The position numbers and the translations under genes were made by a program. A stretch of 32,000 bases of DNA. Origin: Bellilinea caldifistulae. Lineage in GTDB: Bacteria > Chloroflexota > Anaerolineae > Anaerolineales > Anaerolineaceae. Every line of letters starts with the position of its first letter. The first letter of the stretch is position 1. Below the pieces are notes generated by a model. The model saw only the letters and a program-made list of their open reading frames with translations. It was not told the DNA's origin and did no database searches. The stretch spans positions 210,001 through 242,000 of the forward strand of contig NZ_LGHJ01000019.1 in assembly GCF_001306055.1 (NCBI RefSeq), read 5' to 3'. Shown piece by piece: positions 10,382 through 31,395 of this stretch.

Positions 10382-10600
10382 ATGAATGGGTCACTTTATC
10401 ACAAATGCGAGTTGCTTTTCTGGGATGTAGCCATTGATCTTCTCACCCGCTCGGTTTGGCTGCGCAACCTGATTCGGCAAGCAGTTTTGCTCAAAAATTC
10501 ATCTGACCTCAAACTCTATTTCTCCATTGTTGTGCTGAGTGGTTTGTTTGGATTCTTTGTTGGTTTTGCCATTCCCCACTTAATCCAATTCCTCTGGTGA
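10382..10600 (+). CDS. Small hypothetical membrane protein (72 aa)
   Basis: The C-terminal hydrophobic stretch YFSIVVLSGLFGFFVGFAIPHLIQFLW looks like one TM helix. Its stop overlaps the GTG at 10597 of the next ORF. Confidence 0.35.
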   Translation: MNGSLYHKCELLFWDVAIDLLTRSVWLRNLIRQAVLLKNSSDLKLYFSIVVLSGLFGFFVGFAIPHLIQFLW

Positions 10601-10605
10601 ACTTC

Positions 10606-13014: not shown

Positions 13015-13020
13015 GCTAAA

Positions 13021-13061
13021 GACCACGACCGGCCTCAAAAACCGGTCGTGGTCATTTTTTT
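13021..13061 (+). terminator. Rho-independent terminator after slyD (between convergent genes)
   Basis: A perfect 12-bp stem, GACCACGACCGG (13021-13032) with CCGGTCGTGGTC (13042-13053), and a 9-nt loop. A T-run at 13055-13061 follows. Confidence 0.8.
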
Positions 13062-13085
13062 ATTTTTCACAAAAAAAGCAAGGGC

Positions 13086-14147: not shown

Positions 14148-14287
14148 TTGTGCGCTCGCTTATATTTCAAAAAGAATATCCATGCCTTGCCCGGCATGGA
14201 ATTTACCCAACGATAAAAGCCATTCCAATTCACAATTCCAAGTATACTCAACATTAGCCATAAGAAAAGAGGTGATTTGGAGCAATT

Positions 14288-15343
14288 ATGGAAAATTCAG
14301 ATATTTCTGGCTTAATCCGCTCCCAATTGTTGAAATCGGGTAATCCGGTTATTTTGGATGACAGAATTTATCTCTGCTGGCTGGGGGATCATCCGCCATC
14401 CATCATCAGCGACCTCAATCACTGGGATGAAGAGCATCCCCTTCAATTTGATCATCTCGCGGAAGATTTGTGGGTTTACCCGCTGGAATTGGCGGCTGGC
14501 ACATACATCGAATACGCTTTCATCCGCCATAAACGGCGTATCCCCGATCCCAACAATTCTCATCGCACCCCCAACGGCATGGGGAAGTATAATCACTACT
14601 TCACCTTTCCGGCTTCCGATTTGGCATTCTTCCTCCCCAAGGACACGCCTCCGCTAAAAGGCAAATTGATCAGCCTTCGCCTTCCCACTCATCAACTTTT
14701 GGCAGGCAAAAAACGCAGCATCCATTTATACCAACCCCCTACCCAAGGCCCCGTACCCTTACTGGTTATGTGGGACGGCAAGGAATGTCTGGAACGGACA
14801 ATGCTCCCTCACCTTGTGGAAAATCTCGTCGAACAGGGCAAAATTGAGCCGATAGCGCTTGCCATGATCGAAAACGGCGGGCGTTATCGTACCATGGAAT
14901 ACTTTTGTTCTGAGGCAACCCTTGGATTTATGCAATTTTCAGTGTTACCTGCGGCGTTACAACATCTTAACATTATCCCTCCTCAGGAAAAACAAGGCAG
15001 TCTGGCCATTGGGGGAGCTTCTTTAGGGGGATTGATGGCGTTATATGCTGCATTGCGGCTACCGCACTGGTTCGGTAAAGTGCTTTCCCAATCAGGTGCA
15101 TTCACAATCGGAGACCAAAAACTGGTGGTGTGGAGTTTACTGGAGCACCAGCAAACCCTGCCAATCCATCTATGGCTGGATTGCGGAATTTATGAGCCGC
15201 TTATCGAGACCAACCGAGAAATGGCCGCCTTGCTAGAGCAGAAAGGATATATCTTCACTTATAAGGAGAGCTTAAGCGGACACAATTATCCAGCCTGGCG
15301 TCGCCTGCTGCCCGATGCCCTGATTACTTTGTTTGGTCGTTAA
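14288..15343 (+). CDS. Esterase family alpha/beta hydrolase (enterochelin-esterase-like, with N-terminal beta domain)
   Basis: 351 aa. Nucleophile elbow GGASLGGLMALY (GxSxG), a downstream SQSGAF block and a C-terminal His (SGHNYPAW). The layout resembles the putative-esterase (Fes/IroE-like) family. Confidence 0.7.
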   Translation: MENSDISGLIRSQLLKSGNPVILDDRIYLCWLGDHPPSIISDLNHWDEEHPLQFDHLAEDLWVYPLELAAGTYIEYAFIRHKRRIPDPNNSHRTPNGMGKYNHYFTFPASDLAFFLPKDTPPLKGKLISLRLPTHQLLAGKKRSIHLYQPPTQGPVPLLVMWDGKECLERTMLPHLVENLVEQGKIEPIALAMIENGGRYRTMEYFCSEATLGFMQFSVLPAALQHLNIIPPQEKQGSLAIGGASLGGLMALYAALRLPHWFGKVLSQSGAFTIGDQKLVVWSLLEHQQTLPIHLWLDCGIYEPLIETNREMAALLEQKGYIFTYKESLSGHNYPAWRRLLPDALITLFGR

Positions 15344-15346
15344 CCC

Positions 15347-15688
15347 ATGCCGCCAGAAAATCCTGGGTCAAACTCTTCCTTTCCGGTCAGGCGGGTGTAT
15401 ATTTGTGGCAATGGGAAATGCGCTCACCGCGCCATTGCAGAGCGGGTGTTTGATCGCCTTCAATCGTTGATCCGTGCTTACCAACTGGATGATTTTGAGG
15501 CCCCATACCGGGTCAAGTGTCAACTGGCCGGCTGCCTGGATATTTGCGAAAATGGCGCTACCCTCGTCGTCCAACCGGATGGTATTTATTACTGGAACAT
15601 TGATGACGTAAAAGTTGAAAAAATTTTCTTTCAGCATCTCATGAAGGATCATCCGGTTGAAGAATTCAGATATAAGCCAGAACATTGA
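15347..15688 (+). CDS. Thioredoxin-like [2Fe-2S] ferredoxin domain protein
   Basis: 113 aa with Cys pattern CGNGKC (C-x4-C) then GCLDIC (C-x3-C) about 35 residues later. That is the spacing of thioredoxin-like 2Fe-2S ferredoxins. It starts 4 nt after the esterase stop. Confidence 0.65.
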   Translation: MPPENPGSNSSFPVRRVYICGNGKCAHRAIAERVFDRLQSLIRAYQLDDFEAPYRVKCQLAGCLDICENGATLVVQPDGIYYWNIDDVKVEKIFFQHLMKDHPVEEFRYKPEH

Positions 15689-15770
15689 TGCCGAATTTCG
15701 TGTAAATATCCTGAGATGGATTAAGAATCTTAAAATTCACCGGGAATTTGTCCAGACATCCTTAAAACAC

Positions 15771-15799
15771 TTGACTCTCGGCGCCAACCTTTCTATAAT
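15771..15799 (+). promoter_or_regulatory. Near-consensus sigma-70-type promoter (TTGACT - 17 nt - TATAAT)
   Basis: TTGACT at 15771-15776 and TATAAT at 15794-15799 with a 17-nt spacer. No protein-coding ORF lies downstream before the terminator at 16060-16093. Confidence 0.6.
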
Positions 15800-15805
15800 A
15801 AAAGT

Positions 15806-16093
15806 GCAGGGAGCTCAAAGGAATTGATGGCTCCTCGACGGGAAACCGGGAGTTTTTGGTAAAACTGAGAATTGAGGGTCAAACCTTAAAAACAGATTAC
15901 CTAAAAAGACTGTGTACAGTCACCCCGGAAGGTGCATTCGCTTCCTGGTGGGTTGCGGAAAACCCCTTCCCCTGAAAAACGGGAAGTAAAAGCCAGAGAA
16001 GGATGCCCAAGGAAAACGACGAGGAAAGCAAGTAGGTTACTTTGAGCCCCTGCTCATTCCACCCCCGGTTGAAATTACCGGGGGTGTTTTTTT
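15806..16093 (+). ncRNA. Orphan structured non-coding RNA of about 250-290 nt, family not identified
   Basis: It is bounded by the promoter above and a strong intrinsic terminator.
- A 14-bp closing helix pairs 15806-15820 (GCAGGGAGCUCAAAG) with 16040-16053 (CUUUGAGCCCCUGC), with one bulged A.
- Internal hairpins include CGG-GAAA-CCG (15839-15848, GNRA loop), GACUG-UGUA-CAGUC (15908-15921), CUUCCC...GGGAAG (15966-15986) and GGUAA...UUACC (15858-15901).
- A purine-rich, apparently single-stranded 3' segment has three AGGA motifs (15995-16030).
- No ORF of 60 aa or more lies in the 413-nt gap. Confidence 0.5.
16060..16093 (+). terminator. Rho-independent terminator of the orphan RNA
   Basis: A 9-bp GC-rich stem, CACCCCCGG (16060-16068) with CCGGGGGUG (16078-16086), and a 9-nt loop. 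Seven T follow (16087-16093). The U-tract exists only on the + strand, so it does not terminate the minus-strand hpt. Confidence 0.8.
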
Positions 16094-16102
16094 GTGTGTT
16101 TA

Positions 16103-16687
16103 TCAGGTTTTACCTTTCAACACATCTGGCTTGAGCACCCCTATAAATGGAAGATTGCGGTATTTTTCATTGTAGTCTAAGCCGTACCCGACAACAAAAC
16201 GATCGGGCAGGTCAAACCCCTTATACTTGAGGGGAATATCAATCAAGCGGTGAGCTGGTTTGTTGAACAACACACACACCTCAAGACTGGCAGGATTGCG
16301 ATCCCGCAGACTGCGCAGCAGATAACCCAAAGTCAAGCCGGTATCAATCACATCCTCCACAAACAGCACATGTCGCCCATCAATCGGTATTTCAAGGTCC
16401 TTGATCAACCGTACCATCCCCCGTTGACGTGCTTCGGCAGAGTAACTGGCAACTGCCAGGAAATCCACCTCACTGGGTATAGTGATCACCCGCAGCAAAT
16501 CCGCCATCAGAAATAGCACTCCCTTAAGCACCCCCACCAGTACCGGATTTTTATCGGCATAATCTTGCGAAATCCGTTCTCCCAATTCAAGGACTTTCTG
16601 ACGAATCTGATCTTCCGTGATCAAAATTTCGCGAATATCACGACCGAGTTCGCCATACTTTGCCAGAATCGCATCATTCGTCATCAC
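16103..16687 (-). CDS. hpt: Hypoxanthine(-guanine) phosphoribosyltransferase, copy 1
   Basis: 194 aa. PRPP-binding motif VLFVEDVIDTGLTL, VGVLKGVLFLMADL and C-terminal FVVGYGLDYNEKYRNLP are all typical of Hpt. Confidence 0.92.
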   Translation of the reverse strand: MMTNDAILAKYGELGRDIREILITEDQIRQKVLELGERISQDYADKNPVLVGVLKGVLFLMADLLRVITIPSEVDFLAVASYSAEARQRGMVRLIKDLEIPIDGRHVLFVEDVIDTGLTLGYLLRSLRDRNPASLEVCVLFNKPAHRLIDIPLKYKGFDLPDRFVVGYGLDYNEKYRNLPFIGVLKPDVLKGKT

Positions 16688-17063
16688 TTCGTTTTTGAGC
16701 CTCCGTACCCTTTAACTGGTTAGCCTCATCAAACAGGCCGTATTTCACCATTAAGTCACGCATCTCACGCCGCTTAAGCAGCTTGATCTTAATATGCGGG
16801 TAGAGTTGATTCATCAACCGTATTTTCTTGTTTTTACGGGTGGACAATTGGGGTCTGAGCGTGGTCAGCTCGATGTACAAATCCTGTTCCGGCAGGTAAA
16901 AATCGGGGGAAAAGGCAAGGGTTACATTCCCTTTCTCGTCCCATTCCAGAGGAAAGGTATGCGGTTCATATTCCCAGCGGATTCCGTAAAAATCCAAAAT
17001 ACGGGCAAAAATTTCCTCTGCCGGGTGTGCGAAAACGGGTTTCTTTTGTTCATCCTGCGACAA
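16674..17063 (-). CDS. Hypothetical protein, possible PD-(D/E)XK nuclease-like fold
   Basis: 129 aa. Its stop overlaps the hpt start by 11-14 nt, which suggests an operon. SPDFYLPEQDLYIELTT...K resembles a D...E-x-K endonuclease-fold motif, but this is weak. Confidence 0.55.
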   Translation of the reverse strand: MSQDEQKKPVFAHPAEEIFARILDFYGIRWEYEPHTFPLEWDEKGNVTLAFSPDFYLPEQDLYIELTTLRPQLSTRKNKKIRLMNQLYPHIKIKLLKRREMRDLMVKYGLFDEANQLKGTEAQKRSDDE

Positions 17064-17088
17064 TGAAGGGACACCTCTGTTCTAAGGG

Positions 17089-17664
17089 TTAGCGGATGAT
17101 TTGTTCCGGTAAGCGATTCAATGCATGACAGATCATTTCAGCAGCCACTTCGCAACTGATTCTCCCCGTGTTGATCACCAGATGATACAAACAAGGATCA
17201 TTCCAATCTACCTGATAATATCGCGAAAGATACAGTTTTCGTGCCCGATCACTTGCCAATATTTGTGCTCGGGCAGCCTTGGGATAAACCTTCTTTTCCT
17301 CCACAATCCGCTGAACGCGGACTTCTTCATCTGCGACTACGCGCACATGAAACACTCGTGGGTGTCCTCTCAGGACAACCTGTCCTGCCCTGCCAATAAT
17401 AACCACCTTACCCGCATCGGCCAGTTCGTGCAGCACCTGGCTGACGGCATTTAAATAATCTTGTTGTTGTTGGCCGGTAGGATTTACTCCCAGCAACCCC
17501 AGTTCGTCAATCATCGCCAGCGCTACTTCAGGTGCGCCCGCCCGTAAAGCCGCCTGATTAATCAGATCTCGCCAGACAAGCTGAAACCCCATCCGCTCGG
17601 CAACCAGTTTACCAATCACCGAGCCCCAACTACCCATCTGGCGCGAGATTGTGACAACATCCAT
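17089..17664 (-). CDS. Cytidylate kinase-like family protein (Cytidylate_kin2-type)
   Basis: 191 aa. The N-terminus VVTISRQMGSWGSVIGKLVAERMGFQLVWRDLI matches the ITISRxxGSGGxxIGxxLAxxLG pattern of this family as I recall it. The P-loop-like GSGG reads GSWG here. Confidence 0.7.
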   Translation of the reverse strand: MDVVTISRQMGSWGSVIGKLVAERMGFQLVWRDLINQAALRAGAPEVALAMIDELGLLGVNPTGQQQQDYLNAVSQVLHELADAGKVVIIGRAGQVVLRGHPRVFHVRVVADEEVRVQRIVEEKKVYPKAARAQILASDRARKLYLSRYYQVDWNDPCLYHLVINTGRISCEVAAEMICHALNRLPEQIIR

Positions 17665-17749
17665 AACAAAATTATAGCATGTCCCCGTTTAAGTTCGTGG
17701 TATGATTCATTGGTCAATATTCATCCCCATCGTCAGTGAGGTGAGCACC

Positions 17750-18337
17750 ATGAACCCGCGGTTAAAATTCCCCTATGAATTTATTGGAGAAATCCTCATC
17801 ACTCAGGAACAAATCCAGCAGCGCGTTGCCGATTTGGGCGAACAAATCACCCAGGATTATCAGCATAGCGATAAACTGCTCTTACTGGGCTTGTTACGCG
17901 GCAGTGTGATGTTCATGACCGACTTGATGCGGCATATCCGCCGCCCAATGACGATGGATTTCATGTTGGTATCCTCTTACGCGGGTACAGAGTCCAGCGG
18001 GTTTGTGCGAATTGACGCCGACCATAAAACCAATATCTACGGCTGGGATGTCATCCTGATTGATGACATTGTGGACACGGGTTACACGCTTTATACCGTG
18101 CGCAAATTGTTACTGGAACGACAGCCCCGTAGCCTGAAAATTTGCGCACTGCTCGACAAAAAAGCCCGTCATAAAGTGGACATCCACATTGACTATCTCG
18201 GTTTTGAAATCCCGGATTATTTTGTGGTGGGCTATGGTCTGGATATTGACGAGAAGGGGCGCAATTTGCCTTATATCGCTTCGGTTGATCTGGAAAAGTA
18301 CAAAAAACTCTATCCGCCAGATGAAGGGAAAAAGTGA
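17750..18337 (+). CDS. hpt: Hypoxanthine(-guanine) phosphoribosyltransferase, copy 2 (diverged paralog)
   Basis: PRPP motif VILIDDIVDTGYTL, LGLLRGSVMFMTDL and FVVGYGLDIDEKGRNLP. I chose the ATG at 17750 because it follows GAGGTGA (17738-17744). The track start at 17702 adds 16 residues of unlikely sequence. Confidence 0.9.
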   Translation: MNPRLKFPYEFIGEILITQEQIQQRVADLGEQITQDYQHSDKLLLLGLLRGSVMFMTDLMRHIRRPMTMDFMLVSSYAGTESSGFVRIDADHKTNIYGWDVILIDDIVDTGYTLYTVRKLLLERQPRSLKICALLDKKARHKVDIHIDYLGFEIPDYFVVGYGLDIDEKGRNLPYIASVDLEKYKKLYPPDEGKK

Positions 18338-18343
18338 GGAGTT

Positions 18344-19465
18344 ATGAAAAAGAGAATCGGAGTATTGACCACCGGGGGCGATAGTCCCGGGATCAACGCT
18401 GCCTTGAGGGGATTGGGGAAGGCCGCCACCGGTGTGTACGGCATGGAAATCATCGGCTTTCAAGACGGTTTCAGCGGAATGGCACAGGGATTGACCGTCG
18501 AATTGGAAGGTTCGGCTTTTTCGGGTATTCTCACCACCGGCGGCACAATTCTGGGTACCAACCGGGACCGCCCCGATCGGGTGATCATTGATGGAGTTCC
18601 GCAGGATGCCACTTCCCAAATCCTGCAGAACTTTGACAAATTCAACCTTCATGCGCTGGTTTGCATTGGCGGCAGTGACGCCCAGGACAGTGCGTACTAT
18701 CTTATGCAGCGCGGTTTGAATGTAATCACCCTGCCGGTTACCATTGACAACGATTTACCCGGCACCGACACTTCGATTGGATTCGACACAGCCGTCGAGG
18801 TTGCCGCCGAAGCGATTGATCGTCTGCATAGCACCGCCATCAGCCATCACCGCATCATCATCGTGGAAATGATGGGACGCGAAACCGGCTGGTTAACTCT
18901 GGCGGCAGGAATTGCCGGCGGCGCAGATGTAATTCTCATCCCGGAAATTCCTTATCACACTGAAAAAGTCGCCGAAGCCATCCTAAAGCGCAGCCACAGT
19001 GGCAAGCGCTTTTCCCTCGTTGCCGTTTCGGAAGGTGCCATCTCTCAGGAAAGCGTGCGCTTCTTTGAAAAAGCACGTCTTGCCAACCGTCGTCTGCGCC
19101 AGGGCACAGAACAATCCGAAGTGGAACAGCGGTTGGAAGAGATTGAAAAACACGCCGCCGGAGATACCCTTCATCTGGCAAACCGATTGGAAGATTTCAC
19201 CAAACTGGAAACCCGAATCACCATTTTGGGCTACTTACAGCGTGGCGGTACGCCCTCGGCCACTGACCGGGTTCTCGCCACTCAACTAGGAACCGCCTGT
19301 GCTGCGCTCATTCAGGAAGGTGTTTTCGGCGTGATGGTTGGCACGCGCTCCGGAACAGTGGTCACGACACCGCTGGATCAGGTAGCCCATCAGACCAAAA
19401 CCGTCCCCCTTGATCATGCCTGGATTCAGGGAGCGCGGTTGGTAGGAGTCAATCTGGGGGACTAG
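18344..19465 (+). CDS. pfkA: 6-phosphofructokinase (PfkA family; phosphoryl donor uncertain)
   Basis: 373 aa. MKKRIGVLTTGGDSPGINAALRG, LPVTIDNDLPGTDTSIGFDTA, IVEMMGRETGWL and LGYLQRGG are canonical PFK blocks. Confidence 0.92.
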   Translation: MKKRIGVLTTGGDSPGINAALRGLGKAATGVYGMEIIGFQDGFSGMAQGLTVELEGSAFSGILTTGGTILGTNRDRPDRVIIDGVPQDATSQILQNFDKFNLHALVCIGGSDAQDSAYYLMQRGLNVITLPVTIDNDLPGTDTSIGFDTAVEVAAEAIDRLHSTAISHHRIIIVEMMGRETGWLTLAAGIAGGADVILIPEIPYHTEKVAEAILKRSHSGKRFSLVAVSEGAISQESVRFFEKARLANRRLRQGTEQSEVEQRLEEIEKHAAGDTLHLANRLEDFTKLETRITILGYLQRGGTPSATDRVLATQLGTACAALIQEGVFGVMVGTRSGTVVTTPLDQVAHQTKTVPLDHAWIQGARLVGVNLGD

Positions 19466-20305: not shown

Positions 20306-20393
20306 ATCCGGCACTTGATCGAATATTCATACCGCATGTCAGCGCAACTTGAAGATTATTTCTGGGTTTAACCCTGAGAGGTATAAACCTACC

Positions 20394-22055
20394 ATGGATC
20401 CATTAAAAATAGGCTCTCATACTCGCTTTAATTCCCCTCAAAATCTTTTCTGGTCCGGTGACACAGCCGCACTTTCCACGGATGTTGAAATCATTCGCCA
20501 AAGACTGTTATCCTTAGACTCACCCTTGTTGGTGGTAACTGACGGTCAGAATGTCTGGCTCACGGATGAGGGAACCATCCTGCCAGGGGAGAAAAACTCC
20601 ACCACCTCCTACCGCTGGCTGGCAACCCTGCCTCCTTCACCAATCGAATCGCTTGGTGATTCATCTTTTCAGGAATGGTACGGCTGCCGTTACGCTTATT
20701 ACAGCGGCGCCATGGCCAACGGGATTGCCTCCACCCGCCTGGTCATTGCCATGGGCAAAGCCGGTTTTCTGGCATCCTTTGGTGCGGCAGGTCTTTCCCC
20801 CGAACGGATCGAGGCGGCTATCCACGAAGTTCAAACTGCCCTGCCGCAAGGGCCGTATGCCTTCAACCTGATCAACAGCCCAAATGAACCCGCCCTGGAA
20901 CGTCGCGCGGCCGAGTTGTATGTCCAACACGGCATTCGCAGCGTGGAGGCTTCCGCTTATCTGGAAATTACCCCTGCCCTGGTGTACTACCGCGCCAACG
21001 GATTAATCAGTCAGCCGGACGGTACAATCCGCATTCAAAACCGGCTGATTGCAAAATTATCCCGTAAAGAAGTCGCCCGTCAGTTCATGCTCCCGGCCCC
21101 TGATGAGATCCTCAATCAATTGGTGCAGGAGAACCGATTGACCGAAACTCAGGCAAATCTCGCCCGCCGTGTTCCAATGGCCGACGACATCACCGTTGAG
21201 GCTGATTCGGGAGGACACACCGATAACCGCCCATTAGTGGGACTGCTCCCATCTATTCTGACCCTGAGGGATGAGATTCAAGATCAAATGCAGTACCCCG
21301 TTCCGATTCGAATTGGCGCAGCCGGGGGAATCAGCACACCTCAGGCAGCCCTGGCAGCGTTAATGATGGGGGCTGCTTATATTGTCACCGGTTCGGTCAA
21401 TCAGGCCTGTATTGAGGCCGGGGCATCCGAACACACCCGCCGCCTGCTCGCCCAGGCCGACATGGCGGATGTTACCATGGCACCTGCCGCCGACATGTTC
21501 GAAATGGGCGTCAAAGTCCAGGTTTTGAAACGCGGCACCATGTTTGCCATGCGGGCTTCCAAGCTCTACGAATTGTATTCCCGCTATCCATCCCTTGAAG
21601 CCATCCCCGTTGAGGAACTTCAAAAACTGGAAAAGACCGTTTTCAAGCGCCCAGTCGAAGAAATCTGGCAGGATACGGTGCGATTCTTCCAGCAGCGCGA
21701 TCCGCGTCAGTTAGAAAGAGCCGAGAAAGATCCGCGTCATAAAATGGCGCTGGTCTTTCGCTGGTACCTGGGACTGTCTTCCCGCTGGTCAAACAGCGGT
21801 GAAAAGGGCCGCGAGATGGACTACCAGATCTGGTGCGGGCCGGCAATGGGAGCTTTCAACGAATGGGTGCGGGGGACCTATCTTGAAAAGCCTGAAAATC
21901 GTTCTGTCGTAGATATTGCTCTCCACATCCTGACCGGGGCGGCATATTTGCAGCGTGTCCGTTTGCTGAACGCCTACGGCGTCCAAACAAGCCCTGATCT
22001 GGAGCGTTACCAACCACTCCAGCCATTGACAGAGTCTATCCTCGAAAAGGCTTGA
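20394..22055 (+). CDS. pfaD: PfaD-family trans-acting enoyl reductase (FMN, 2-nitropropane-dioxygenase-like) of PUFA/polyketide synthases
   Basis: SFQEWYGCRYAYYSGAMANGIASTRLVIAMGKAGFLASFGAAGL plus the ADDITVEADSGGHTDNRP and GAAGGISTPQA blocks are the hallmarks of PfaD-type ER. I chose the ATG at 20394 because it follows GAGAGG. The track start at 20349 is a TTG. Confidence 0.9.
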   Translation: MDPLKIGSHTRFNSPQNLFWSGDTAALSTDVEIIRQRLLSLDSPLLVVTDGQNVWLTDEGTILPGEKNSTTSYRWLATLPPSPIESLGDSSFQEWYGCRYAYYSGAMANGIASTRLVIAMGKAGFLASFGAAGLSPERIEAAIHEVQTALPQGPYAFNLINSPNEPALERRAAELYVQHGIRSVEASAYLEITPALVYYRANGLISQPDGTIRIQNRLIAKLSRKEVARQFMLPAPDEILNQLVQENRLTETQANLARRVPMADDITVEADSGGHTDNRPLVGLLPSILTLRDEIQDQMQYPVPIRIGAAGGISTPQAALAALMMGAAYIVTGSVNQACIEAGASEHTRRLLAQADMADVTMAPAADMFEMGVKVQVLKRGTMFAMRASKLYELYSRYPSLEAIPVEELQKLEKTVFKRPVEEIWQDTVRFFQQRDPRQLERAEKDPRHKMALVFRWYLGLSSRWSNSGEKGREMDYQIWCGPAMGAFNEWVRGTYLEKPENRSVVDIALHILTGAAYLQRVRLLNAYGVQTSPDLERYQPLQPLTESILEKA

Positions 22056-22094: not shown

Positions 22095-22862
22095 TCATTC
22101 GCTCAGTTGAATTTCCCGCAAGCGAATAGATGGAATTTCACCGGTTTGTAGTTGAACCGCCAGCGTGACCATGTAGTTGCCGCGTTGCTGCCACCAGCCA
22201 ATTAACCGATGGCCTTCTTCCGGCAAATTGCTGCGGTATTCCAAAATCCGCCAGTCTCCCAAATTCGTTGCCATGCCGGGAAACACCTGAATCAGGTGAG
22301 TATCCACAGCCAACCCGAGCCGCAAAGCCTTCAGGGCGGCCTCTTTGGCGCTCCACAATAATGTGGTACGTCCCGCCTGTGCCTCTGTGGGGGCTGAAAT
22401 TACCCATTCGATTTCTTCACCGGTGAAGTAATCCTGCAAGAACGCAGGATGCCGTTCCTCAATCCATTCCAGGTCAATCCCAATCCAGATACCCTCATTT
22501 GCGGTATAGGCTGCCGCCGCTCGTTCGCTGCGGTGAGAGATGCTCAGACAACCAGCCAGCGGTTCACCACCCACTTTAACCAGCGGATAGCCGTGATGGT
22601 GATTTTCAACCGAGATTTCAGCCATCGTCTTTCCGGCAAGAGCCGGAACAACACTCAGCAGCATCCGTTTGGCCGTCCAGCGGCCGCTCAACCATTCGCT
22701 GCGCCGCTTGGGGAATCGAATTGTTTCCAGGAAACGCTGTTCCTCGTGAGACAACCAGCTGGTATCAAAAATGGTGAGGTCTCCCCTCTGCGGGAAAACC
22801 TCACCGATGCACCAATCTAAATTGATCTGGCGCTGCCTTTTAGAGAGTGGCATCTGTCCCAT
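22095..22862 (-). CDS. Sfp-type 4'-phosphopantetheinyl transferase (PfaE-like)
   Basis: 255 aa. It has the GIDLEWIE (GxD-I/L-E) and WSAKEAALKA (W/FxxKEAxxK) motifs and the N-terminal FxxxRRSEWLSGRWxAK block. The start (ATG at 22862 or 22853) lies inside the last codons of the megasynthase gene. Confidence 0.85.
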   Translation of the reverse strand: MGQMPLSKRQRQINLDWCIGEVFPQRGDLTIFDTSWLSHEEQRFLETIRFPKRRSEWLSGRWTAKRMLLSVVPALAGKTMAEISVENHHHGYPLVKVGGEPLAGCLSISHRSERAAAAYTANEGIWIGIDLEWIEERHPAFLQDYFTGEEIEWVISAPTEAQAGRTTLLWSAKEAALKALRLGLAVDTHLIQVFPGMATNLGDWRILEYRSNLPEEGHRLIGWWQQRGNYMVTLAVQLQTGEIPSIRLREIQLSE

Positions 22863-25800
22863 TGACCAGTAATTTCATCGGTTTAAGCAGTGCCGCATCT
22901 ACGGTGTAGGGCAATGCCACAGTCCGGTAATCCTTCACTTCCAGGTAGACCATGCCGTTCTGATCCACCAGCCTGGCATCAAATGCCAGACTGCCATCAC
23001 TCGATCGGCTGGGAATGACCTCGGCAAACAATGGCTTGTCCTCCTGCGGCACACTGCGATGCAGCACCAGTTCGCCAATTGAGCGCGGTAATGCCAATGT
23101 GCCGGTCGCTCCCGCTTCCCAGATGCCAGCAGTCTGCAAAATCGCTTCCAGCAAAATCGGCATGGTTACCAACGAGACCGGCTGCTCGGTGATAGCCGGC
23201 AGGGATTCACGGACTTTGCCCAACACCTTCCCCTCCACCCGTTGGACGCCTTCCAGGACTTGGAAAGAAGGGCCGTGGAAGTAGAGACGATAGATCTCAT
23301 CGCTGGCAACGGTGTAAGCGCCGTTCCAACCGGGCGGTTGAACTTTAACCGATGCAGATTTTTCCGTCTTTGGGGTCAAATAAACTTTTCCGGCAAAGTG
23401 CTGGATGACTTCATTCGGACGAGTTTTAGCAACCAGGGTCGATTCAAGGCTGACATAAGCCACCAAACCACTCGCCTCGCGGATTACTCTGGCTTTCCAG
23501 GTTACCCGGCGCGGTTCGTTGCGGTAGAACTTGAAGGGAGCCAGGAATTGAACATCTTCCAGACGTTCAACTGCAAAGCCGACTTTTTCAGCACCCAACA
23601 CTGAAGCAACATGCTTCGCCGCCGCTGAAAATCCTTCAATTCCCATCACCCCCGGCAGCAAGGGGATTCCGTTCAAAGCATGGTCTTTGAGAAACGGCTG
23701 GTCATTCGGATTCAATTCGGCTTCCAGCAGCACACCGGTTTGCAGGTCAAAGCCGTTCACTGCGCTGAGCATGACATGCGCCGGGCTACCTTCGCGTAAA
23801 GCCTGATTAGCGGCTTCCAGGTTCAAACCGCTCTCCTTGCGGAGCGGTTTTTCCAGAACACCCAACGAACCGGAAACTACCACCTCACTGACCGGCTCAT
23901 TCCCTACCAGTTCTTCATAAACAAAGCGGGCTGCCTGCTTCGGAGGCATCTGGTCAATCCCGCCCATTTCCATTAATTGAGGAATATATCCGCGACTCGC
24001 CATCCCCACCTGCGCCCAGGCGCTCCAATCAATGGTGACCACCCGCATTTCCGGGTGCAGACCACGCAGGTGAGAAGCAGCCTTTGCCAGCCAGTCATTG
24101 GCAGCACTGTAATCGGTCTGACCGGAATTGCCAAACCTGCCGGCAACCGAACCAAACAGCAACACCTGCTTTGGCAATCTATCCGCTGTTTGAAGGGCTT
24201 TGTAAAGATTGAAGAAACCTCCGGCTTTAACCTGAATAGTCGTACGGAATTCTTCCTCCGGTTTGAGATGCAGCTTTCGGCTGCGTTCAATGCCGGCTGC
24301 ATGAATCAGGACATCCACGCGACCATTCTCCTCGACAATCTGACCAATGGTCTCCCCTACCTGATGAGGATCGGTAACATCACATAACCGGTAGACCACG
24401 CTGGCTCCAAGTGAACGGGCAGTCTGAATGGCATCCAGAATGCCAGCCATACGCTCCAATGCAGCCAGTTTCTCTTCCACCTGCGCAGGGGAAGGTTTTT
24501 GTCCGTTGGCGCTCATTTCTCTGAGCAGGTCTTTTTTCAAGCCATCCCGATCCGCTTTTAATCGCTGGAGGGCTGCATCCTGAGGATCGGCTAACGGACT
24601 GCGTCCCAGCAGGTAGAAGATGCCCTGCGTTCGCTGTGCCAGATCCGTAAGGATTGGCGCAACAATACCGCCAGCCCCGCCGCTGATAATCATTACCGGT
24701 TTCTCAGGTAGAGTTGATTGGACCGGATTGTTTCCTTCTTCTTCAAAGAGGGCAATGCTAAAGCGCTGATCGCCCTCCCAGCCGACTTCAACCACAGAGG
24801 CATCGCCGAGCGTCTCTCCGACCAGGCGGGCAGCAATCTGGCTATCATTTGCGCCTGCTTCAAAATCTACCACCTTGACCAACGCGTTTGGCCGTTCACG
24901 GCTAATAGCTTTGGCAAAGCCGGAAATCAAACCGCCCGAAACATTCTTAGCCGCAGTTACGCAGGTTCCATGCAGGCCGCCCATGCGGGTTGCACAGATC
25001 AAGAAAGGCTCACCTTCCACCATCCGGAGCAAGTGATAGAGGCGTACCAGGCGATTATCTACCAGAGATTGCCAGACACGAACATCCTGTTCCGCCAGTG
25101 ATGGCTCATGGTTCAAACCGACCAGGTAATACAAACCCTGAACCCTGCCAGTGCTTTGGAAGGAGGCAACTTTTTCCTGCCATTCCTCGGGCGTCTGGGA
25201 GGAATCCAGAGTCAAAATTTGGACTTTGCGGGCGCGCAACCTGCGGGCAAGGGAATCGGCTGTTTTGCCTTCATCACTCACCAGAATCACCCTGCTGTTT
25301 TCATCTAGAGTGACTCCGCTCGGCAGACACAAATCCAATTTCGGCAGCAGCACCGGTTTTGGAACCCTTCGGCGGATGAGAATTTGCGTCTCTGCCGGCT
25401 CTTCGGTTGGTTTAGGCTCTTCAACGGTCTCCATGGCAACCGGAGCTTGCACCTCTTTGGTTGACAGCGCCTGCGCCGTCGGCTCTTTTGTTGAAACGGA
25501 CTCAACAACAGGGGTAGCGGTGACAGGTTTTTCTTCGGAAACGGGCAGTTCCTCGGTGCTGGTCGCCTTCCCATTCGTTGATAACGCCTCAACCATGAAG
25601 CCGATGACTTTTTTCAAGGTGTTGTAATCCACCAACCTGAGGTCTTCCCGCCGCGGGATGTTGTAGTGGGTGCGGATAGTCGCAAACAGTTCCGCCTGTT
25701 TTACCGTGTCAATTCCTAAATCGGCTTCCAGGTCCAAATCCAAATCCAGCATTTCAACCGGATAGCCCGTCTTTTCACTGACAACCGACAGCACGTAGGT

Positions 25801-28800
25801 TTTAATTTCCTCTTCATCCACACCGGAGATGGAAGTCCGTGTTGGTGTTGAAGAAGGCTGTTCGCTCTCAGCCTGGACTGGTGCCGATACTTCGGCAGGT
25901 TCAACCGCCTTGCTGACCGGCTGGGCAACCGTTGTAGCAGCCGGTTGAGACTGACTGACAACCCCGCTGCTCAAAGCGTCCACCATGAAGTCAATCACCT
26001 TCTCCAGGGTGTTGTAATCCACCAGCCGCAGGTCTTCCCGCCGCGGGATGTTGTAGTGGGTGCGGATGGTAGCAAACAATTCAGCCTGTTTGACGGTATC
26101 AATCCCTAAATCGGCTTCCAGGTCAAGCCCCAGGTCGAGCATTTCAACCGGGTAACCGGTCTTTTCACTGACCACTGAAAGCACATATTCTTGAATGGCT
26201 GCCCGGTCAACGGCCGGGGCTGCAGAAAGAGACGGGACTGATTGAGCCACCTGCATAGGTATCGGCTGAGGTTCAGACTTATCCGAAGCAGGCATGGCTA
26301 CATCTTCAGCCGGTTGAGCCTGAGCAGCTATCGCAGCCGCATTTTCCGCCATGAAGGAAATCACTTTGTTGAGGGTGTTGTAATCAACCAGCCGCAAATC
26401 TTCCCGTCTGGGGATGTTGTAATGCGTTCGAATTGCAGCAAAGATTTCAGCTTGTTTCACCGTATCAATGCCCAAATCGGCTTCCAGATCCAGATCCAAA
26501 TCCAGCATCTCGACCGGGTAACCCGTTTTTTCACTGACCAGATTGAGAACAAATTCTTTGATCTCATCTACCTTGACCGGTGATCTGCCGGCGGGCGAGG
26601 AAGTTCCCAAGACAACAGGCTGGAGTTTTTCCTTTTCTTCAACCGCTTCAACAGGATGAGCGGCAGGCTGCGGACTCGGCACACCGACCGGTTGAGATTG
26701 CGGCAATTGATCCGGCTGCTCTGCCCAGCGGGTAGGTCCCTGCCCATACTGCCAGCGGGATTTAGCCGGCGGTTTAACCGGCGGTCCCATGTGGCGGATC
26801 CGGAGAGTGCGTTTTTCCACCTCCAATTCGGCTTTTTCGTAACCCGCAATTTCCGCCAGCCATTGCTGATAGACTGGTTGATTGATCCTTTCCTTTACAT
26901 GGGCAACCACCCGGAATAACGCCATGGCAATTTGCGAGCCAAAACCGGCCCCCAACCGCAGAGCATAACTGACCGGGTATTCACCGCCTTTTGATAGGTT
27001 CAAATCACCCAGATCCGGGTCGGGTTCAAAATTCTCATCATAATTGGCAATCGGCGGCACAATTCCATGTTCCAGGGCTTTGATCGCCACAACATCTTCA
27101 ATCCCCACGCCCATTGCATGACCGGTGTACCCTTTGGTATTTGCGATGATCACCTGATTGGCTTTATCGCCAAAGGTGTATCGGAGTGCCTGAATCTCCG
27201 CGGAAGCCGAACCGCCTCTGGCGGGGGTGTAGGTTTCGTGAGACATGAACATGGTTTGAGCGGCAATTTCTTCCCGGCGAATACCAAAACGCTGCTCGGC
27301 CGTGCTGATCAGGCGATTCATGATTTCCCGCACATGGGGAACATCCAGGCGGGTTCCATGATAAGCGCTATTGGCGATATCCGTCGCCAACACCTCACAA
27401 ATCGCCCGCATGCCGCGTTCTCGCACCGCATCTTCGGACTCAACTACCAGTGCGGCCGCCCCCATTCCCATGATCATCCCATTCCGCCGGCGGTCAAACG
27501 GCAAAGCAGCCATACGCAGATTACCTTCTGTGGTAGCCGCACCAGAAACGAACAAGCCGGTTCCAATCCACTCCGCCAGCGGACCGCCGGTCACATCGTC
27601 ACCCGCAATGATGACGACTCGGCGGCAACGTCCGGCGCGAATCCAGTCTTCAGCAACCGCAATCGCATGGGTTGTGGTGGCACAGGCAGCGTTGACATGC
27701 GTATTCGGGCCGCGTGCGCCAATATATTCAGCAAATTGCGAATGCCCCATTGAAAGCACCCGGAAGACAAAACGGCGATCAAAATGGTAATCCATCTCTT
27801 TGAGCCTTGTTTCCAGTGCTTTGATTCGCTCGCGCAGCAGGTTTCTCACCCCCGTCTGATCCACTGCGACCAGACTGAGAATGTTGCGCACTTCTTCTAA
27901 CTGCTTCTCAACTTGCTTGTATTCGGAATAACGCGACATCTCTTCCGCCATTTCATCCAGCCCCGGGAAGGCAGAAGCAAAGATCACACCGGTTTCATCA
28001 GCCAGCGCTTCTGGCAAGCGCCAGCGGTCGGGGAGATAAGTGCCTTTACTGGTCTTACGATAGGCCATTACCAGGGGAATTCCGGCATCCCTCAAAGCTT
28101 CAATGCCGGCAGCCACTGCGAGTTGGGTGGTAATATCCCAGGCATCCGCACGCTCTACCGGAATGCCGAACTCTTCCACCGGATCAAATTGCCCGCGCTG
28201 TCCACCCAACTTTACGGTCAAATCCACGCTTTCAATCGGGATCATCTGGGCGCCGGCTTCGCTTTTTTCCAAACGGGTTGGCCGCTTTTCCACCATTCGC
28301 TTGCGCAATTCTTCCGGCAAAGGTTCAATGCGGATTTCGCCTTTTAAAATACTCAGGATATTCTCATCATTGAAAACGGGTTTTGATCTGCCCGGCAGCC
28401 CCAAGCCTGCACCGCTGATCACGACCGAACCCGTCAATGGCAGGCGACCGTCGTTGACCGGTGTCTGTACTTCAACCATCGGTTTTACAGACGCGCTAAT
28501 CGCAACCGGGGGGACTGATTTCACACTTACCTCATCAATAGCGGATTTTTGAGTGGACACTTGTGCTGGCGTTTCAAGTTTCTGTTCTCGACCGGGCGCA
28601 ATTCCCGCTGCCAGCAGACCACAAACTGCTTCGTTAAAACTGACCACTGCACCTTTTCGGGGATGATTGGTTGCCAGCAGCATGACACCCGAGCGGTCTT
28701 TGAAAATATCATTTGCCAGAGCGTTCAATACCCGTTTCGGCCCAATCTCGACAAAGACTCTTGCTCCGGCATTATAGAGCGTTTCCATGCCTTTAATAAA

Positions 28801-31395
28801 TTGCACTGGCGAGGCAACCTGCTTTCCCAAAATATCCAGAATCTGTTCCCGGCTGGTGGGGTAAAACTCGCCGGTCACATTGGCTGCCACCGGAATCTTG
28901 GGGGATTGCAGGTTCATACGCGCAATAACCTGTTTGAGGGGCTCGCTTGCCGGGGCAACAATTTTTGTGTGGAACGCATGAGAGACAGAGATGCGGGTGG
29001 CCTGGTAACCGGCTTTTTCAAAAGCCTCTAAGGCAGCCTGAATACCTGCCGTGCTGCCACCCACGACCGATTGCATGGGGCTATTGATGTTGGCGATGAC
29101 CACATATTCCGAGATTTCCTGTAAGATCCGTTCAACCTCTTGAATGGGAGCAGAAACTGCCACCATACCACCATTATCCGCCACCGAGACTTTTTTCATC
29201 TCACGGCCGCGTGCCGAAACGACTTCCAAAGCCTCCGCAAAAGTCAATACGCCGGATGCCACCAGTGCGGCATATTCCCCAAGGCTGTGACCAATCACAA
29301 AATCGGGGGAAAACCCGAATTTCTCCATCAACCGCAGCAATGCGACATTGGCCGTCAACATCGCTGGCTGAGTGATCGCCGTATCCCGTAATGCGGCTTC
29401 GGCTTGTTTTAACGATTCTTCGTCCCCCTCTACATAAATGTAACTGGTTAAGGGACGCCCCAAAATGGGTGTCATGATCGCATCAGCCTCTTTGAAGGTA
29501 TCCGCTACAAGTGGTTCGGCTTCGCACAGGTCTTTGAGCATGTTGACATATTGAGATCCCTGCCCGGGGAACATAAAGGCAACTTTACCAGCCTTCCCGC
29601 TGCCCCGATAAACCCCCTGGGCAGTCAGCGCCTGCCAGGCATTTGGGGCTTCATTGTCGAGCGTTTTAAGCGCTTTTTCTCCCCGTGAAATCAACTCCTC
29701 AACCGATGAGTAGTCAATCACCAATCGCTCGGGCTTGGTTACCATCGCCGCATCTGGCAATTGGGAAGGTGGTAATTGACCCTGGCGGGCATTTTCTAAA
29801 ATTTGAGCCAGTTGTTCCTTTAACTGCTGGCTGTTTTCCCCACTCAGGAAGGCGATTCCGCGATAAGGCACGGGCAAGGTCGAAGAAACCGCTTCCGCCA
29901 CGACTTGCGGAGCAGGACTTTCCACCTGCGCCGCTTTTCTTTCCGGCACCGCAAACACCTTTGTTTCAGAAGTCAGCAGCCCCGGCACCCATTCTTCCAG
30001 CACCATGTGAAAGTTGGTGCCGCCAAAACCAAACGAACTGACTCCAGCCCGGCGGATTTCTCCAGGGGCATTTTCCCACGGTCGGGTTTCGGTATTGACG
30101 TAAAAGGGAATGCGGTCGAAATCAATATTTGGGTTGGGTTTATGGAAATTCACAGAGGGCGGCAAAACTTTTTCGTACAAGGCGTACATGGCTTTCAGGA
30201 CACCCGCCGCCCCGGCCGCACTCTTCAAATGACCAATATTGGACTTGACCGATCCCATCGCAATGCTGCGCGGTGGCAGACCAAACTTTCCAAAAACCTC
30301 GTTGAGAGATTGTGTCTCCACCACATCCCCAACCCGCGTGGAGGTGCCATGGGCTTCAATCAAACCCACACTGGCAGGGTTTACGCCGGCATTCTTCCAG
30401 GCCCGTTCAATCGCACGCTGCTGACCAAGAGGATTGGGAGCCGTAATCCCTTTACCTTTGCCATCGCTGCTGGCGCCAACCCCGCGGATAACCGCATAAA
30501 TTTTATCCCCGTCCCGTTCAGCATCGGCCAGCCGCTTTAACAAAAAGAGCACAGCCCCTTCGCCCATGACGAATCCATTCGCCCCTTCAGCGAACGGCCG
30601 TGAACCGTCCGGCGAAAGCGCCCCAATCTTACAGAATTTTACGAACCCCTCAACCCCCATATTGCGGTCCACACCGCCCGTCAAAACCGCATCAAACTGG
30701 TGATTGACCAGCCCGTCAATAGCGGCTTGAACCGCTGCATGAGAAGAAGCACAGGCAGCGTCTGTGATGAAATTTGGGCCAGAAAAATTGAACACATTGG
30801 CAATTCGGCCGGCAATCACGTTGCCCAGTTCACCCGGCATGGTATCTTCGGTAATATTGCTCACCCTTTTGCGGATATTTTGCGTCATTCCCTCCAGCAG
30901 CGCCTTCTGCACTTCTGGTGGTAGTTGGGCAAATGCTTCCACTTCTTTAAGGGCTTCCATATAATCCGGCAGACGAATTCGTAGGCTGGTTATGTAATGG
31001 TTTTCACCCGCCAGCGCATTGCCAATAATCACCGCCGTACGTGTTCCATCAAGGGGTTTCTGCGGGTAACCGTAATCTAAAAGAGCCTGCCGCGCTACAC
31101 TGATGCCCCACTTTTGGCTTTCATCCATCACCGCCAGAACGTTTGGTGGAATGGGGATCCCCCATTTCAGCGGCTCGAAGGGATAAGATCGTACCCACGC
31201 CCCAATTTTGGTATAAGTTTTATCCGGTGCTTTTGGATCAGGATCATAATACAAATCCACCCGCCATCGATCGGGCGGAACCTCGGTCACTGAATATCGC
31301 CCTTGCTTGATATTGTTCCAGAATGCAGGCGCATCTTCAGCATCCGGTAAAATTGCCCCCACTCCGACAATTGCAACGGCTCTAGGATCAAACAT
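22840..31395 (-). CDS. PfaA-like iterative type I FAS/PKS megasynthase, 2851 aa, domain order KS-AT-KS-ACP-ACP-ACP-KR-DH
   Basis: A single uninterrupted ORF preceded by AAAGGAGAG. Domain calls are listed as separate features and rest on active-site motifs read from the translation and verified on the DNA. Confidence 0.95.
   Translation of the reverse strand: [2851 protein letters not shown]
22891..23778 (-). other. Domain DH: polyketide-synthase-type (double hot-dog) dehydratase (aa ~2540-2835)
   Basis: HxxxGxxxxP motif [10 protein letters not shown] with His2572 (codon 23680-23682, CAT, checked). [11 protein letters not shown] is GYxYGPxF-like. LLEAILQ sits where PKS DH domains have DxxxQ/H, so the acid residue here is Glu. 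Confidence 0.8.
23986..25380 (-). other. Domain KR: ketoreductase with N-terminal structural subdomain (aa ~2006-2470)
   Basis: Rossmann motif [23 protein letters not shown], and the catalytic region [21 protein letters not shown] (Tyr2429). Confidence 0.85.
25570..25818 (-). other. Domain ACP3 (aa ~1860-1942), Thr1897 at the expected Ser position
   Basis: [62 protein letters not shown]. Thr codon ACG at 25705-25707. Confidence 0.8.
25960..26208 (-). other. Domain ACP2 (aa ~1730-1812), Thr1767 at the expected Ser position
   Basis: [62 protein letters not shown]. Thr codon ACC at 26095-26097. Confidence 0.8.
26326..26574 (-). other. Domain ACP1 (carrier-like domain 1, aa ~1608-1690), Thr1645 at the expected Ser position
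   Basis: [62 protein letters not shown]. Thr codon ACG at 26461-26463. Confidence 0.8.
26905..28434 (-). other. Domain KS2: second, apparently catalytically complete ketosynthase (aa ~988-1497)
   Basis: Starts [12 protein letters not shown]. Cys1238 in VNAACATT (codon 27682-27684, TGT, checked). His in MSHETYTP and [15 protein letters not shown] follows the Cys. About 250 residues precede the Cys (I recall roughly 160 for FabF-type KS, not counted here), including a predicted helical, charged insert at aa ~1150-1205. Confidence 0.8.
28711..29586 (-). other. Domain AT: malonyl-CoA:ACP acyltransferase (aa ~604-895)
   Basis: [16 protein letters not shown] with Ser704 (codon 29284-29286, AGC, checked). 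SHAFHT is the HAFH motif associated with malonyl specificity. Confidence 0.9.
29998..31386 (-). other. Domain KS1: PfaA-type ketosynthase (aa ~4-466)
   Basis: N-terminus [22 protein letters not shown]...DRW and the PfaA-like insert [17 protein letters not shown]. Active-site Cys215 in TDAACASS (codon 30751-30753, TGT, checked). His in [11 protein letters not shown] and [10 protein letters not shown]. Confidence 0.9.

Follow-up and report, generated by a model that had tools for sequence, protein, structure and literature searches.

Threonine at the phosphopantetheine attachment position of tandem carrier domains in a widespread family of PUFA-synthase-like megasynthases

The window analysed here is a 32,000-nt stretch of the Bellilinea caldifistulae genome, in which a megasynthase gene is overlapped at its 3′ end by a phosphopantetheinyl transferase (PPTase) gene and followed by a gene for an enoyl reductase. 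The features of this locus are as follows.

22840..31395, minus strand: megasynthase gene (2851 aa; WP_061917867.1 / GAP11267.1), from the ORF, its translation and Pfam domains
29986..31383, minus strand: KS1 (aa 5-470; Pfam), with Cys in DAACASS and His in EAHGT and NIGH
28675..29577, minus strand: acyltransferase (aa 607-907; Pfam), with GHSLG and HAFH motifs
26716..28365, minus strand: KS2, a second KS-like domain (aa ~1011-1560), called 'CLF' in the literature, with its Cys-His-His triad kept
26335..26580, minus strand: ACP domain 1 (aa 1606-1687), Thr1645 encoded by ACG at 26461-26463
25969..26214, minus strand: ACP domain 2 (aa 1728-1809), Thr1767 encoded by ACC at 26095-26097
25579..25824, minus strand: ACP domain 3 (aa 1858-1939), Thr1897 encoded by ACG at 25705-25707; AF2 model, pLDDT 87
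24013..24693, minus strand: ketoreductase (aa 2235-2461; Pfam), YSAAN motif
22909..23748, minus strand: PKS-type dehydratase (aa 2550-2829; Pfam), HxxxGxxxxP motif
22095..22862, minus strand: Sfp-type 4′-phosphopantetheinyl transferase (255 aa; Pfam), its start overlapping the synthase stop by 23 nt
20349..22055, plus strand: PfaD-family enoyl reductase (Pfam; TIGR02814 at 680 bits), convergent with the PPTase gene

Pfam analysis of the synthase gave the domain order KS-AT-KS2-ACPx3-KR-DH. The catalytic motifs of KS, AT, KS2, KR and DH are all intact, and the Cys-His-His triad of KS2 is invariant across 60 homologues. The enoyl reductase gene keeps the same place in Anaerolineae relatives (ER(-) after the PPTase, loci L002-L033).

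The phosphopantetheine arm of fatty-acid, polyketide and non-ribosomal-peptide carriers is attached to a conserved serine. Minus-strand translation revealed that all three ACP repeats contain a 15-residue segment with threonine at this attachment position. Re-translation placed Thr1645, Thr1767 and Thr1897 and their codons exactly where the first-pass annotation had put them, and confirmed its statement that Ser is absent from the segment in every repeat; each of the three window domains does have a Ser, that of VSEKTGYP, 24 residues N-terminal to its Thr. Nucleotide identity between the repeats is 71-78%, and of the 63-72 codons at which two copies encode the same residue, 29-34 are different. 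This divergence at the DNA level bears out the earlier proposal that each Thr is maintained independently and does not reflect a sequencing or assembly artefact.

The Pfam PP-binding family (PF00550) matched the ACP region in three stretches with 63 bits against a cut-off of 20.8. When aligned by phmmer with solved ACPs, including PigH (DLGVDSI and DLGIDSV), 2koo and 2cnr (DLDVDSL), 2lol (DLKADSL) and the ACP of the aflatoxin PKS (DMGIDSL), the Thr itself, and no other residue, occupied the column of the modified Ser, as the annotation had assumed. The AF2 model of ACP domain 3 (pLDDT 87.3) comprises helices at residues 8-23, 44-58 and 74-85 (model numbering), in which the Thr is residue 44, the first of helix II, and its top Foldseek matches were ACPs (TM 0.78-0.83). 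Compared with PF00550-type carriers, the domains thus possess the HMM score and the helical bundle, and the Ser of (D/H)S(L/I) is replaced by Thr in all three.

Recovery of homologues through the ACPs gave 80 genome loci, which have the KS-AT-KS2-ACP-KR(-DH) architecture in common and represent at least seven phyla; all 249 of their ACP motifs contain Thr (ACC 113, ACG 96, ACA 22, ACT 18), every ACP of each synthase being Thr-type. The best 120 protein matches contributed 356 Thr motifs and 28 Ser motifs, 27 of the latter in all-Ser DSIK proteins and one in the first domain of a mixed array (P0090). Metagenomes were scanned with the pattern G-[IV]-D-x-V-K-Q-A-E, x being any NSN codon (second base C or G), which yielded 288 Thr and 7 Ser in ACP context and, among these codons, no Ala, Gly, Pro or Cys at the acceptor position. 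Thr therefore accounts for more than 97% of family members in the genome loci and the metagenome scan, and the two counts (249/249 and 288 versus 7) exclude chance. These searches settled two points raised by the annotation: the DTV motif is clade-wide rather than strain-specific, and the window does not hold a decayed copy among Ser-type homologues, since the homologues have Thr and the catalytic motifs are intact. The conserved feature at the acceptor position is a hydroxyl.

The family occurs in Chloroflexota, Acidobacteriota, Elusimicrobiota, Actinomycetota, Myxococcota, Calditrichota and Leptospiraceae, in hundreds of species-level genomes, and probably also in archaea. The homologue at locus L059 carries the label Elusimicrobium minutum. 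Tandem ACP copy number ranges from 1 to 6 among homologues, and helix II (EADLGxDTVKQAExFAxIR) is almost unchanged across phyla, which, together with the intact catalytic motifs, is what would be expected of a carrier docking on many partners. No column of the domain has Ser as the majority residue in 300 Thr-type domains; with all ACPs of each synthase being Thr-type, this leaves no alternative attachment site in cis.

A small Ser sub-clade is nested in a Thr subfamily. The Ser forms L125, L174 and P0343 share the KS-AT-KS2-ACP-KR-DH order of the Thr forms. Compared with the Thr ACPs of P0110 and P0250, their ACPs show 67-73% identity, but only 44-49% with those of the window, indicating that Ser and Thr exchange among closely related synthases while the rest of helix II stays the same. 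The P0090 array combines one DSIKQAE domain with two DTVKQAE domains.

Alignments of the PPTase revealed intact LSISH, GIDLE and WSAKEAALK motifs, and across 31-40 homologues G128, D130, E132, W170, E174 and K178 show no variation or almost none. Profile matches to Sfp, AASDHPPT and AcpS were obtained, and the AF2 model (pLDDT 91, pTM 0.89) displays the two-lobe Sfp-type fold (about 230 aa), with Foldseek matches to 2byd (E 9e-14), 4mrt (E 7e-13) and PptT. Of 69 genome loci, 60 have the PPTase gene downstream of KR-DH, at a median distance of 98 nt, and six more have it ~5.5 kb downstream; in L078, the one of these six examined, a multidomain acetyl-CoA carboxylase fills the gap. L073, L040, L049, L071, L057, L046 and L074 encode the PPTase as a fusion with the synthase or with KR-DH. 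Within the synthase cassette no other carrier gene was seen, and no CitX/MdcG-type or other modifying transferase is conserved. Among the associated PPTases, whose catalytic motifs are ordinary, no residue clearly explaining Thr acceptance was found; H110, D144, A172 and R189 are weak candidates from comparison with a single Ser-linked PPTase. Against the family profile, the PPTase beside the Ser-type synthase of L202 scored 73.8 bits and that of its Thr-type sister 72.6 bits, and the two have most subfamily-specific residues in common.

Taken from sequence, the reading we consider rather likely is that this family, which corresponds to the Type R synthases discussed below, bears O-phosphopantetheinyl-threonine on working ACPs, put on by a dedicated PPTase. 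The three domains would be the acyl carriers of an iterative PUFA-synthase-like lipid synthase, the 4′-phosphopantetheine would be joined by a phosphodiester to the Thr side-chain oxygen at the N-terminus of helix II, and the co-inherited Sfp-type PPTase would move the arm from CoA to Thr. We infer that the Thr is probably modified and that the product of 22095..22862 is probably the enzyme responsible. Of the two possibilities offered by the annotation, a Thr-linked arm from the adjacent PPTase is favoured over domains that are carrier-like but not carriers, because the PPTase is conserved or fused, Ser is the sole alternative residue, no other Ser is conserved and the catalytic domains are intact. 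As to why Thr is used, one may speculate that it insulates the carriers from the housekeeping AcpS or an ACP hydrolase, that a Thr phosphodiester better resists beta-elimination, or that a permissive PPTase allowed a frozen accident to persist. A more far-reaching version, which we put forward tentatively and regard as doubtful, is that O-(4′-phosphopantetheinyl)-threonine is a real, widespread modification with an insulated Thr/PPTase pair, in which the PPTase would be adapted to the secondary alcohol of Thr and the carriers refractory to AcpS/Sfp and to ACP phosphodiesterase, making a horizontally mobile synthase cassette activated solely by its own transferase, with carrier and PPTase as a naturally orthogonal pair.

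The Thr may also be phosphopantetheinylated without the choice having any meaning, if the PPTase takes Ser and Thr equally and Thr is an ancestral frozen accident. Ser and Thr swap among close relatives and inside the P0090 array, and the near-equal scores and common residues of the L202 PPTase and its sister's fit such indifference; this is nonetheless unlikely, as Ser and Thr are a single-base change apart (TCN/ACN, AGY/ACY) and a ~40:1 excess of Thr over at least seven phyla, written in all four Thr codons, is unexpected under neutrality. Still less probable is that the Thr domains are never modified and act as scaffolds or docking domains, while the synthase uses a separate Ser-type ACP (e.g. 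FAS II AcpP) or CoA thioesters and the PPTase serves another carrier. Drift to Ala, Gly or Asn would then be expected, whereas only Thr and rarely Ser were observed, helix II is near-invariant across phyla, the number of tandem ACPs ranges between 1 and 6, a variability also known from PUFA synthases, and the PPTase adjoins or is fused to the synthase in many lineages with no other carrier gene seen in the cassette. These observations stand against the departure of Thr from the canonical D-S-L motif, the 'weak' mark on the precomputed Pfam match of the homologous tandem-ACP protein P0039, and the unmodified S36T variant of E. coli ACP (PMC3340395).

Two further possibilities concern the group attached and its site. 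A conserved hydroxyl could in general bear a different CoA- or nucleotide-derived moiety, or hold the acyl chain itself in an oxoester bond, and nothing more specific speaks for this; it is very improbable, given that the one modifying enzyme conserved in the cassette is an ordinary Sfp-type PPTase carrying the motifs for CoA/Mg binding, no other type of transferase is conserved and KS chemistry requires a thioester. Attachment of the arm to a different Ser, with the Thr irrelevant, is scarcely credible: the VSEKTGYP Ser recurs in all three window domains, but this position is Ala in 53%, Val in 31% and Ser in 15% of the 300 Thr-type domains, in none of whose columns Ser prevails, and it is part of helix I, distant from where the arm is attached in every PPTase complex.

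A Thr-linked arm would be a new protein modification with a new PPTase specificity, and could provide labelling and pathway engineering with an orthogonal carrier/PPTase pair. Should the Thr stay unmodified, a widespread and complete megasynthase would be operating without a cis carrier, which is just as unexpected. A whole family breaks the Ser rule here under strong selection. PROSITE-type site patterns presuppose the Ser, and annotation rules demanding it would treat these synthases as having no active ACP; a lipid pathway of bacteria abundant in soil and sludge may therefore escape notice. Active-site checks in published work likewise presuppose the carrier Ser (an example was found). Our literature search found no paper on natural Thr carriers and no mass-spectrometric, labelling or structural study of a family member, and the family probably represents an undescribed Thr-linked form of the textbook modification.

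The PPTase of the window shares the pseudo-dimeric two-lobe fold and the Asp/Glu and Glu/Lys motifs of Sfp, human AASDHPPT, PptT and PcpS, at ~15-20% identity to Sfp-type (group II) members, and differs in its presumed acceptor, Thr; to our knowledge, every characterised Sfp-type PPTase acts on Ser. Thr has been placed at the same ACP position in E. coli AcpP S36T, which is described as unable to receive 4′-phosphopantetheine and non-functional (PMC3340395), indicating that at least one PPTase, of the AcpS type, rejects Thr as acceptor. That Thr was engineered, whereas in the window family it is natural, selected and accompanied by its own PPTase of another class. The best solved-structure sequence match, the doublet ACP of PigH (5y08, E 1.6e-11), shares tandem ACPs and TGY..L.L...LE.DLG[IV]D with the window but has Ser.

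Likeness to the PfaA/PfaE PUFA synthases extends to tandem ACPs, the KS-AT...KR-DH order, a PfaD enoyl reductase and a dedicated Sfp-type PPTase, and the whole synthase marginally passed TIGR02813 (PfaA; 1040 bits, cut-off 1010.1). The helix I/II segment of PfaA ACPs aligns residue for residue with that of the window family (TGYP..ML..D.EADLGID[S/T]), and GIDSIKRVE is indeed the sequence of PfaA-type tandem ACPs in this alignment, as the annotation had stated. PfaA ACPs, however, have Ser (LGIDSIKRVE) where the window family has Thr (DTVKQAE), and the two are unlike at most positions downstream of helix II. The window family further departs from the order and partners of PfaA in having one more KS-like domain, which separates AT from the ACPs; pfaB and pfaC genes are absent from the window, and the family is without separate PfaB/PfaC.

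By architecture and downstream PPTase, the window locus is classed as a member of the Type R secondary lipid synthases (Shulse & Allen 2011, PMC3098273), in which a single pfaA-like gene encodes KS-MAT-'CLF'-ACP(3-6)-KR directly upstream of a PPTase gene whose P1b′ motif is of the hShxH type, and which were reported from Chloroflexi, Acidobacteria and Elusimicrobia. That paper nowhere mentions threonine or serine, gives no product and does not list a DH domain. The KS-AT-KS2-ACP3-KR order, the downstream PPTase and the hShxH motif (LSISH here) are all matched in the window, which has a DH in addition. Four features are added here to the description of Type R: threonine as acceptor, a Cys-His-His triad in the 'CLF', fusions of the PPTase and relocations of the ACPs.

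The megasynthase, from Bellilinea caldifistulae (Anaerolineae, Chloroflexota), is identical to WP_061917867.1 / GAP11267.1, a database entry labelled merely as a type I polyketide synthase. Pfam analysis gave the domain order KS, AT, a second KS-like domain (KS2), three PP-binding domains (the ACPs), KR and a PKS-type DH, and the motifs are intact (KS Cys/His/His, AT GHSLG and HAFH, KS2 Cys/His/His, KR YSAAN, DH HxxxGxxxxP). The relevant features are listed below.

22840..31395, minus strand: megasynthase, 2851 aa
26461-26463, minus strand: Thr1645, codon ACG
26095-26097, minus strand: Thr1767, codon ACC
25705-25707, minus strand: Thr1897, codon ACG
22095..22862, minus strand: 4'-phosphopantetheinyl transferase (PPTase), 255 aa, PF01648
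20349..22055, plus strand: PfaD-family enoyl reductase, convergent with the PPTase gene (TIGR02814, 680 bits)
140-2338, minus strand: ORF of 732 aa without Pfam match (E<=1e-5)
7602-8915, plus strand: ORF of 437 aa without Pfam match (E<=1e-5)
10597-11724, plus strand: ORF of 375 aa without Pfam match (E<=1e-5)
11730-12404, plus strand: ORF of 224 aa without Pfam match (E<=1e-5)

The start codon of the 255-aa PPTase model lies 23 nt inside the megasynthase coding region (22840-22862), and this start/stop overlap suggests translational coupling of the two genes; RefSeq holds an alternative PPTase model of 252 aa. The remaining genes of the window are housekeeping genes (MutS, FtsZ, PFK and phosphoribosyltransferases). 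KS2, the 'CLF' of Type R synthases (26716-28365, minus strand, aa ~1011-1560), carries a full KS triad with the Cys in AACATT and two His. Since this triad is complete and all three residues are invariant in 60 homologues, KS2 looks like a second active ketosynthase rather than a classical Cys-less chain-length factor.

Translation revealed [15 protein letters not shown] in each of the three ACP repeats, and rechecking the window DNA showed that the Thr coordinates and codons reported in the first-pass annotation were exact. The ACP copies share 71-78% pairwise DNA identity, and where two copies agree in the amino acid (63-72 codons), 29-34 codons are synonymous variants, the Thr codon itself included. 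This synonymous divergence bears out the earlier proposal that each Thr is maintained independently, and it rules out a sequencing artefact or a pseudogene.

The Thr also occupies the column of the phosphopantetheinyl Ser, as had been claimed. In phmmer searches against all PDB chains it aligned with the modified Ser of both PigH ACPs, and likewise with that of the 2koo/2cnr ACP, 2lol and the aflatoxin PKS ACP. The AF2 model of ACP domain 3 (pLDDT 87.3; helices 8-23, 44-58 and 74-85 in fragment numbering) places the Thr at residue 44, the first of helix II, and its Foldseek matches are ACPs with TM about 0.8. These five independent pairwise alignments and the model rule out a misaligned column.

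Protein, genome and metagenome searches answered the question whether the DTV motif is clade-wide or strain-specific: it is clade-wide, which rules out strain-specific decay. A query with the tri-ACP segment retrieved 2027 proteins at E<1e-5, and the best 120 of these contain 356 D-T-V-K motifs versus 28 D-S motifs. Of the latter, 27 belong to PfaA-like proteins that are all-Ser (DSIK), and the other is in the first domain of the homologous protein P0090. Across 300 Thr-type domains, the segment TGYP.[14 protein letters not shown][VI]DTVKQAE.FAAIR hardly varies. A one-genome-per-species scan yielded at least 558 confirmed stretches, and Thr was found in all 249 ACP motifs of the best 80 loci, although the scan pattern itself contained Thr. 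All four Thr codons are used in these 80 loci (ACC 113, ACG 96, ACA 22, ACT 18), which come from Anaerolineae and other Chloroflexota, Elusimicrobiota, Acidobacteriota, Actinomycetota, Myxococcota/'delta', Calditrichota and Leptospiraceae, and include one MAG labelled archaeon. Because of the Thr in the genome pattern, metagenomes were scanned with a less biased one (GGN RTN GAY NSN GTN AAR CAR GCN GAR), which admits Thr, Ser, Ala, Pro, Gly, Cys and Arg; in ACP context its matches comprised 288 Thr and 7 Ser, and 3 further matches, outside ACPs, were due to chance. Thr may be adaptive or a tolerated accident; its excess over Ser of roughly 40:1, though a single-base change would suffice, argues for selection. 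With a Thr-type array as query, an exhaustive HMMER search through 1.84 billion representatives listed 150 proteins, and the motif scan of the 142 new ones among them gave 93 Thr-type clusters (DTVKQAE, DTVKQVE, DTVKQAT, DTIKQAQ and others) and 49 Ser-type (DSIKRVE, DSIKKAQ and others).

The core architecture is shared by P0292, a 4019-aa protein of the DTVKQVE subfamily with the order ER-KS-AT-KS2-ACP6-KR-DH, in which an NMO/PfaD-like ER is fused N-terminally. Within the megasynthases of five Anaerolineae relatives (loci L010, L012, L015, L024 and L008) the Thr-type ACPs are relocated (KS-ACP-AT-KS2-ACP2-KR-DH, KS-ACP2-AT-KS2-ACP or KS-ACP-AT-ACP-KS2-ACP), with DTVKQAE retained in all. The 'DQDLEGELGID[T/S]VKQAEIMAD' subfamily (L203/L204, the context of P0250) may be archaeal, its neighbours including a CarS-like gene (CDP-archaeol synthase family) and a weak TBP match; L073, labelled 'uncultured archaeon', has a different ACP motif, [19 protein letters not shown]. 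A tandem-ACP PKS-like lipid synthase in archaea would be notable, if true.

Ser forms with DSVKQAE (L125, L174 and P0343) have the same megasynthase architecture as the Thr forms. Between their ACPs and the Thr ACPs of P0110 and P0250 the identity is 67-73%, but either group shares just 44-49% with the ACPs of the window; helix II is otherwise the same in both forms (ELG[IV]D[ST]VKQAEIMAD[IL]R). P0090 carries a mixed array, with DSIKQAE in ACP 1 and DTVKQAE in the next two. Ser and Thr thus replace each other in near relatives, and the site appears to tolerate only hydroxyl residues. Among the four or five ACPs of P0032 there are one DPVKQAE and one ETVKQAE domain; the odd domains of P0090 and P0032 may be inactive or may reflect errors of assembly.

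Of 69 genome loci, 60 have a homologous PPTase downstream of KR-DH, at a median gap of 98 nt, and 6 more have it about 5.5 kb downstream. In one of these 6, L078 (Acidobacteriaceae), the gap is filled by an 1878-aa multidomain acetyl-CoA carboxylase (12919-18555, plus strand), single-chain and eukaryote-like (BC-BCCP-central-CT), and the locus is thus a self-contained malonyl-CoA/synthase/PPTase cassette. A spacing of ~5.5 kb as in L078 recurs in L066, L056, L077, L074, L043, L157, L201 and L140, which are known by spacing alone. L073, L040, L049, L071, L057, L046 and L074 have the PPTase as a natural C-terminal fusion, either on the whole synthase or on the KR-DH protein; in L073 it spans aa 2805-2952 of 2989. 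The family motifs LSISH, GxDxE and WSAKEAxLKA are kept. phmmer gave no match to the PPTase in the PDB; profile searches matched AcpS, AASDHPPT, Sfp and an EntD-annotated PcpS, and its AF2 model (pLDDT 91) matched 2byd, 4mrt and PptT. At many invariant positions the Ser-associated PPTase of L202 does not follow the consensus of the Thr-associated enzymes, and L203, its Thr-associated sister, has most of these differences too. H110, D144, A172 and R189 remain as differences with this single Ser-linked PPTase, and no residue convincingly accounting for Thr use was found in comparing it with the Thr-linked enzymes.

The Thr at the acceptor position is thus real and strongly conserved. Because the catalytic motifs are intact and the megasynthase's own carriers are exclusively Thr-type, the most economical reading, and a fairly probable one, is that the Thr would be phosphopantetheinylated by the dedicated PPTase. 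Unmodified scaffold domains are a weaker explanation, as the hydroxyl-only pattern is to be expected of a nucleophilic hydroxyl but not of a dead site. Attachment at a different residue is likewise weaker: the 300 Thr-type domains contain no majority-Ser column, which rules out another conserved Ser as the site. A prosthetic group other than phosphopantetheine is also a weaker candidate than phosphopantetheinylated Thr. To our knowledge a Thr acceptor is undescribed so far; no natural Thr carriers were found in the literature searched, which included a 2026 survey of PUFA-like synthases and left most subscription papers outside.

The cassette in the window is what Shulse & Allen 2011 (PMC3098273) named Type R secondary lipid synthase, defined there as KS-MAT-CLF-ACP(3-6)-KR with a downstream PPTase and without known product, in Koribacter, Solibacter, Elusimicrobium and Roseiflexus. 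Its PPTases were assigned to the hShxH type (PMC3098273), and the words 'threonine' and 'serine' are both absent from that paper. The pairing of carrier protein and PPTase is of a known kind, and the Type R class is already named but uncharacterised; what is new is the Thr acceptor.
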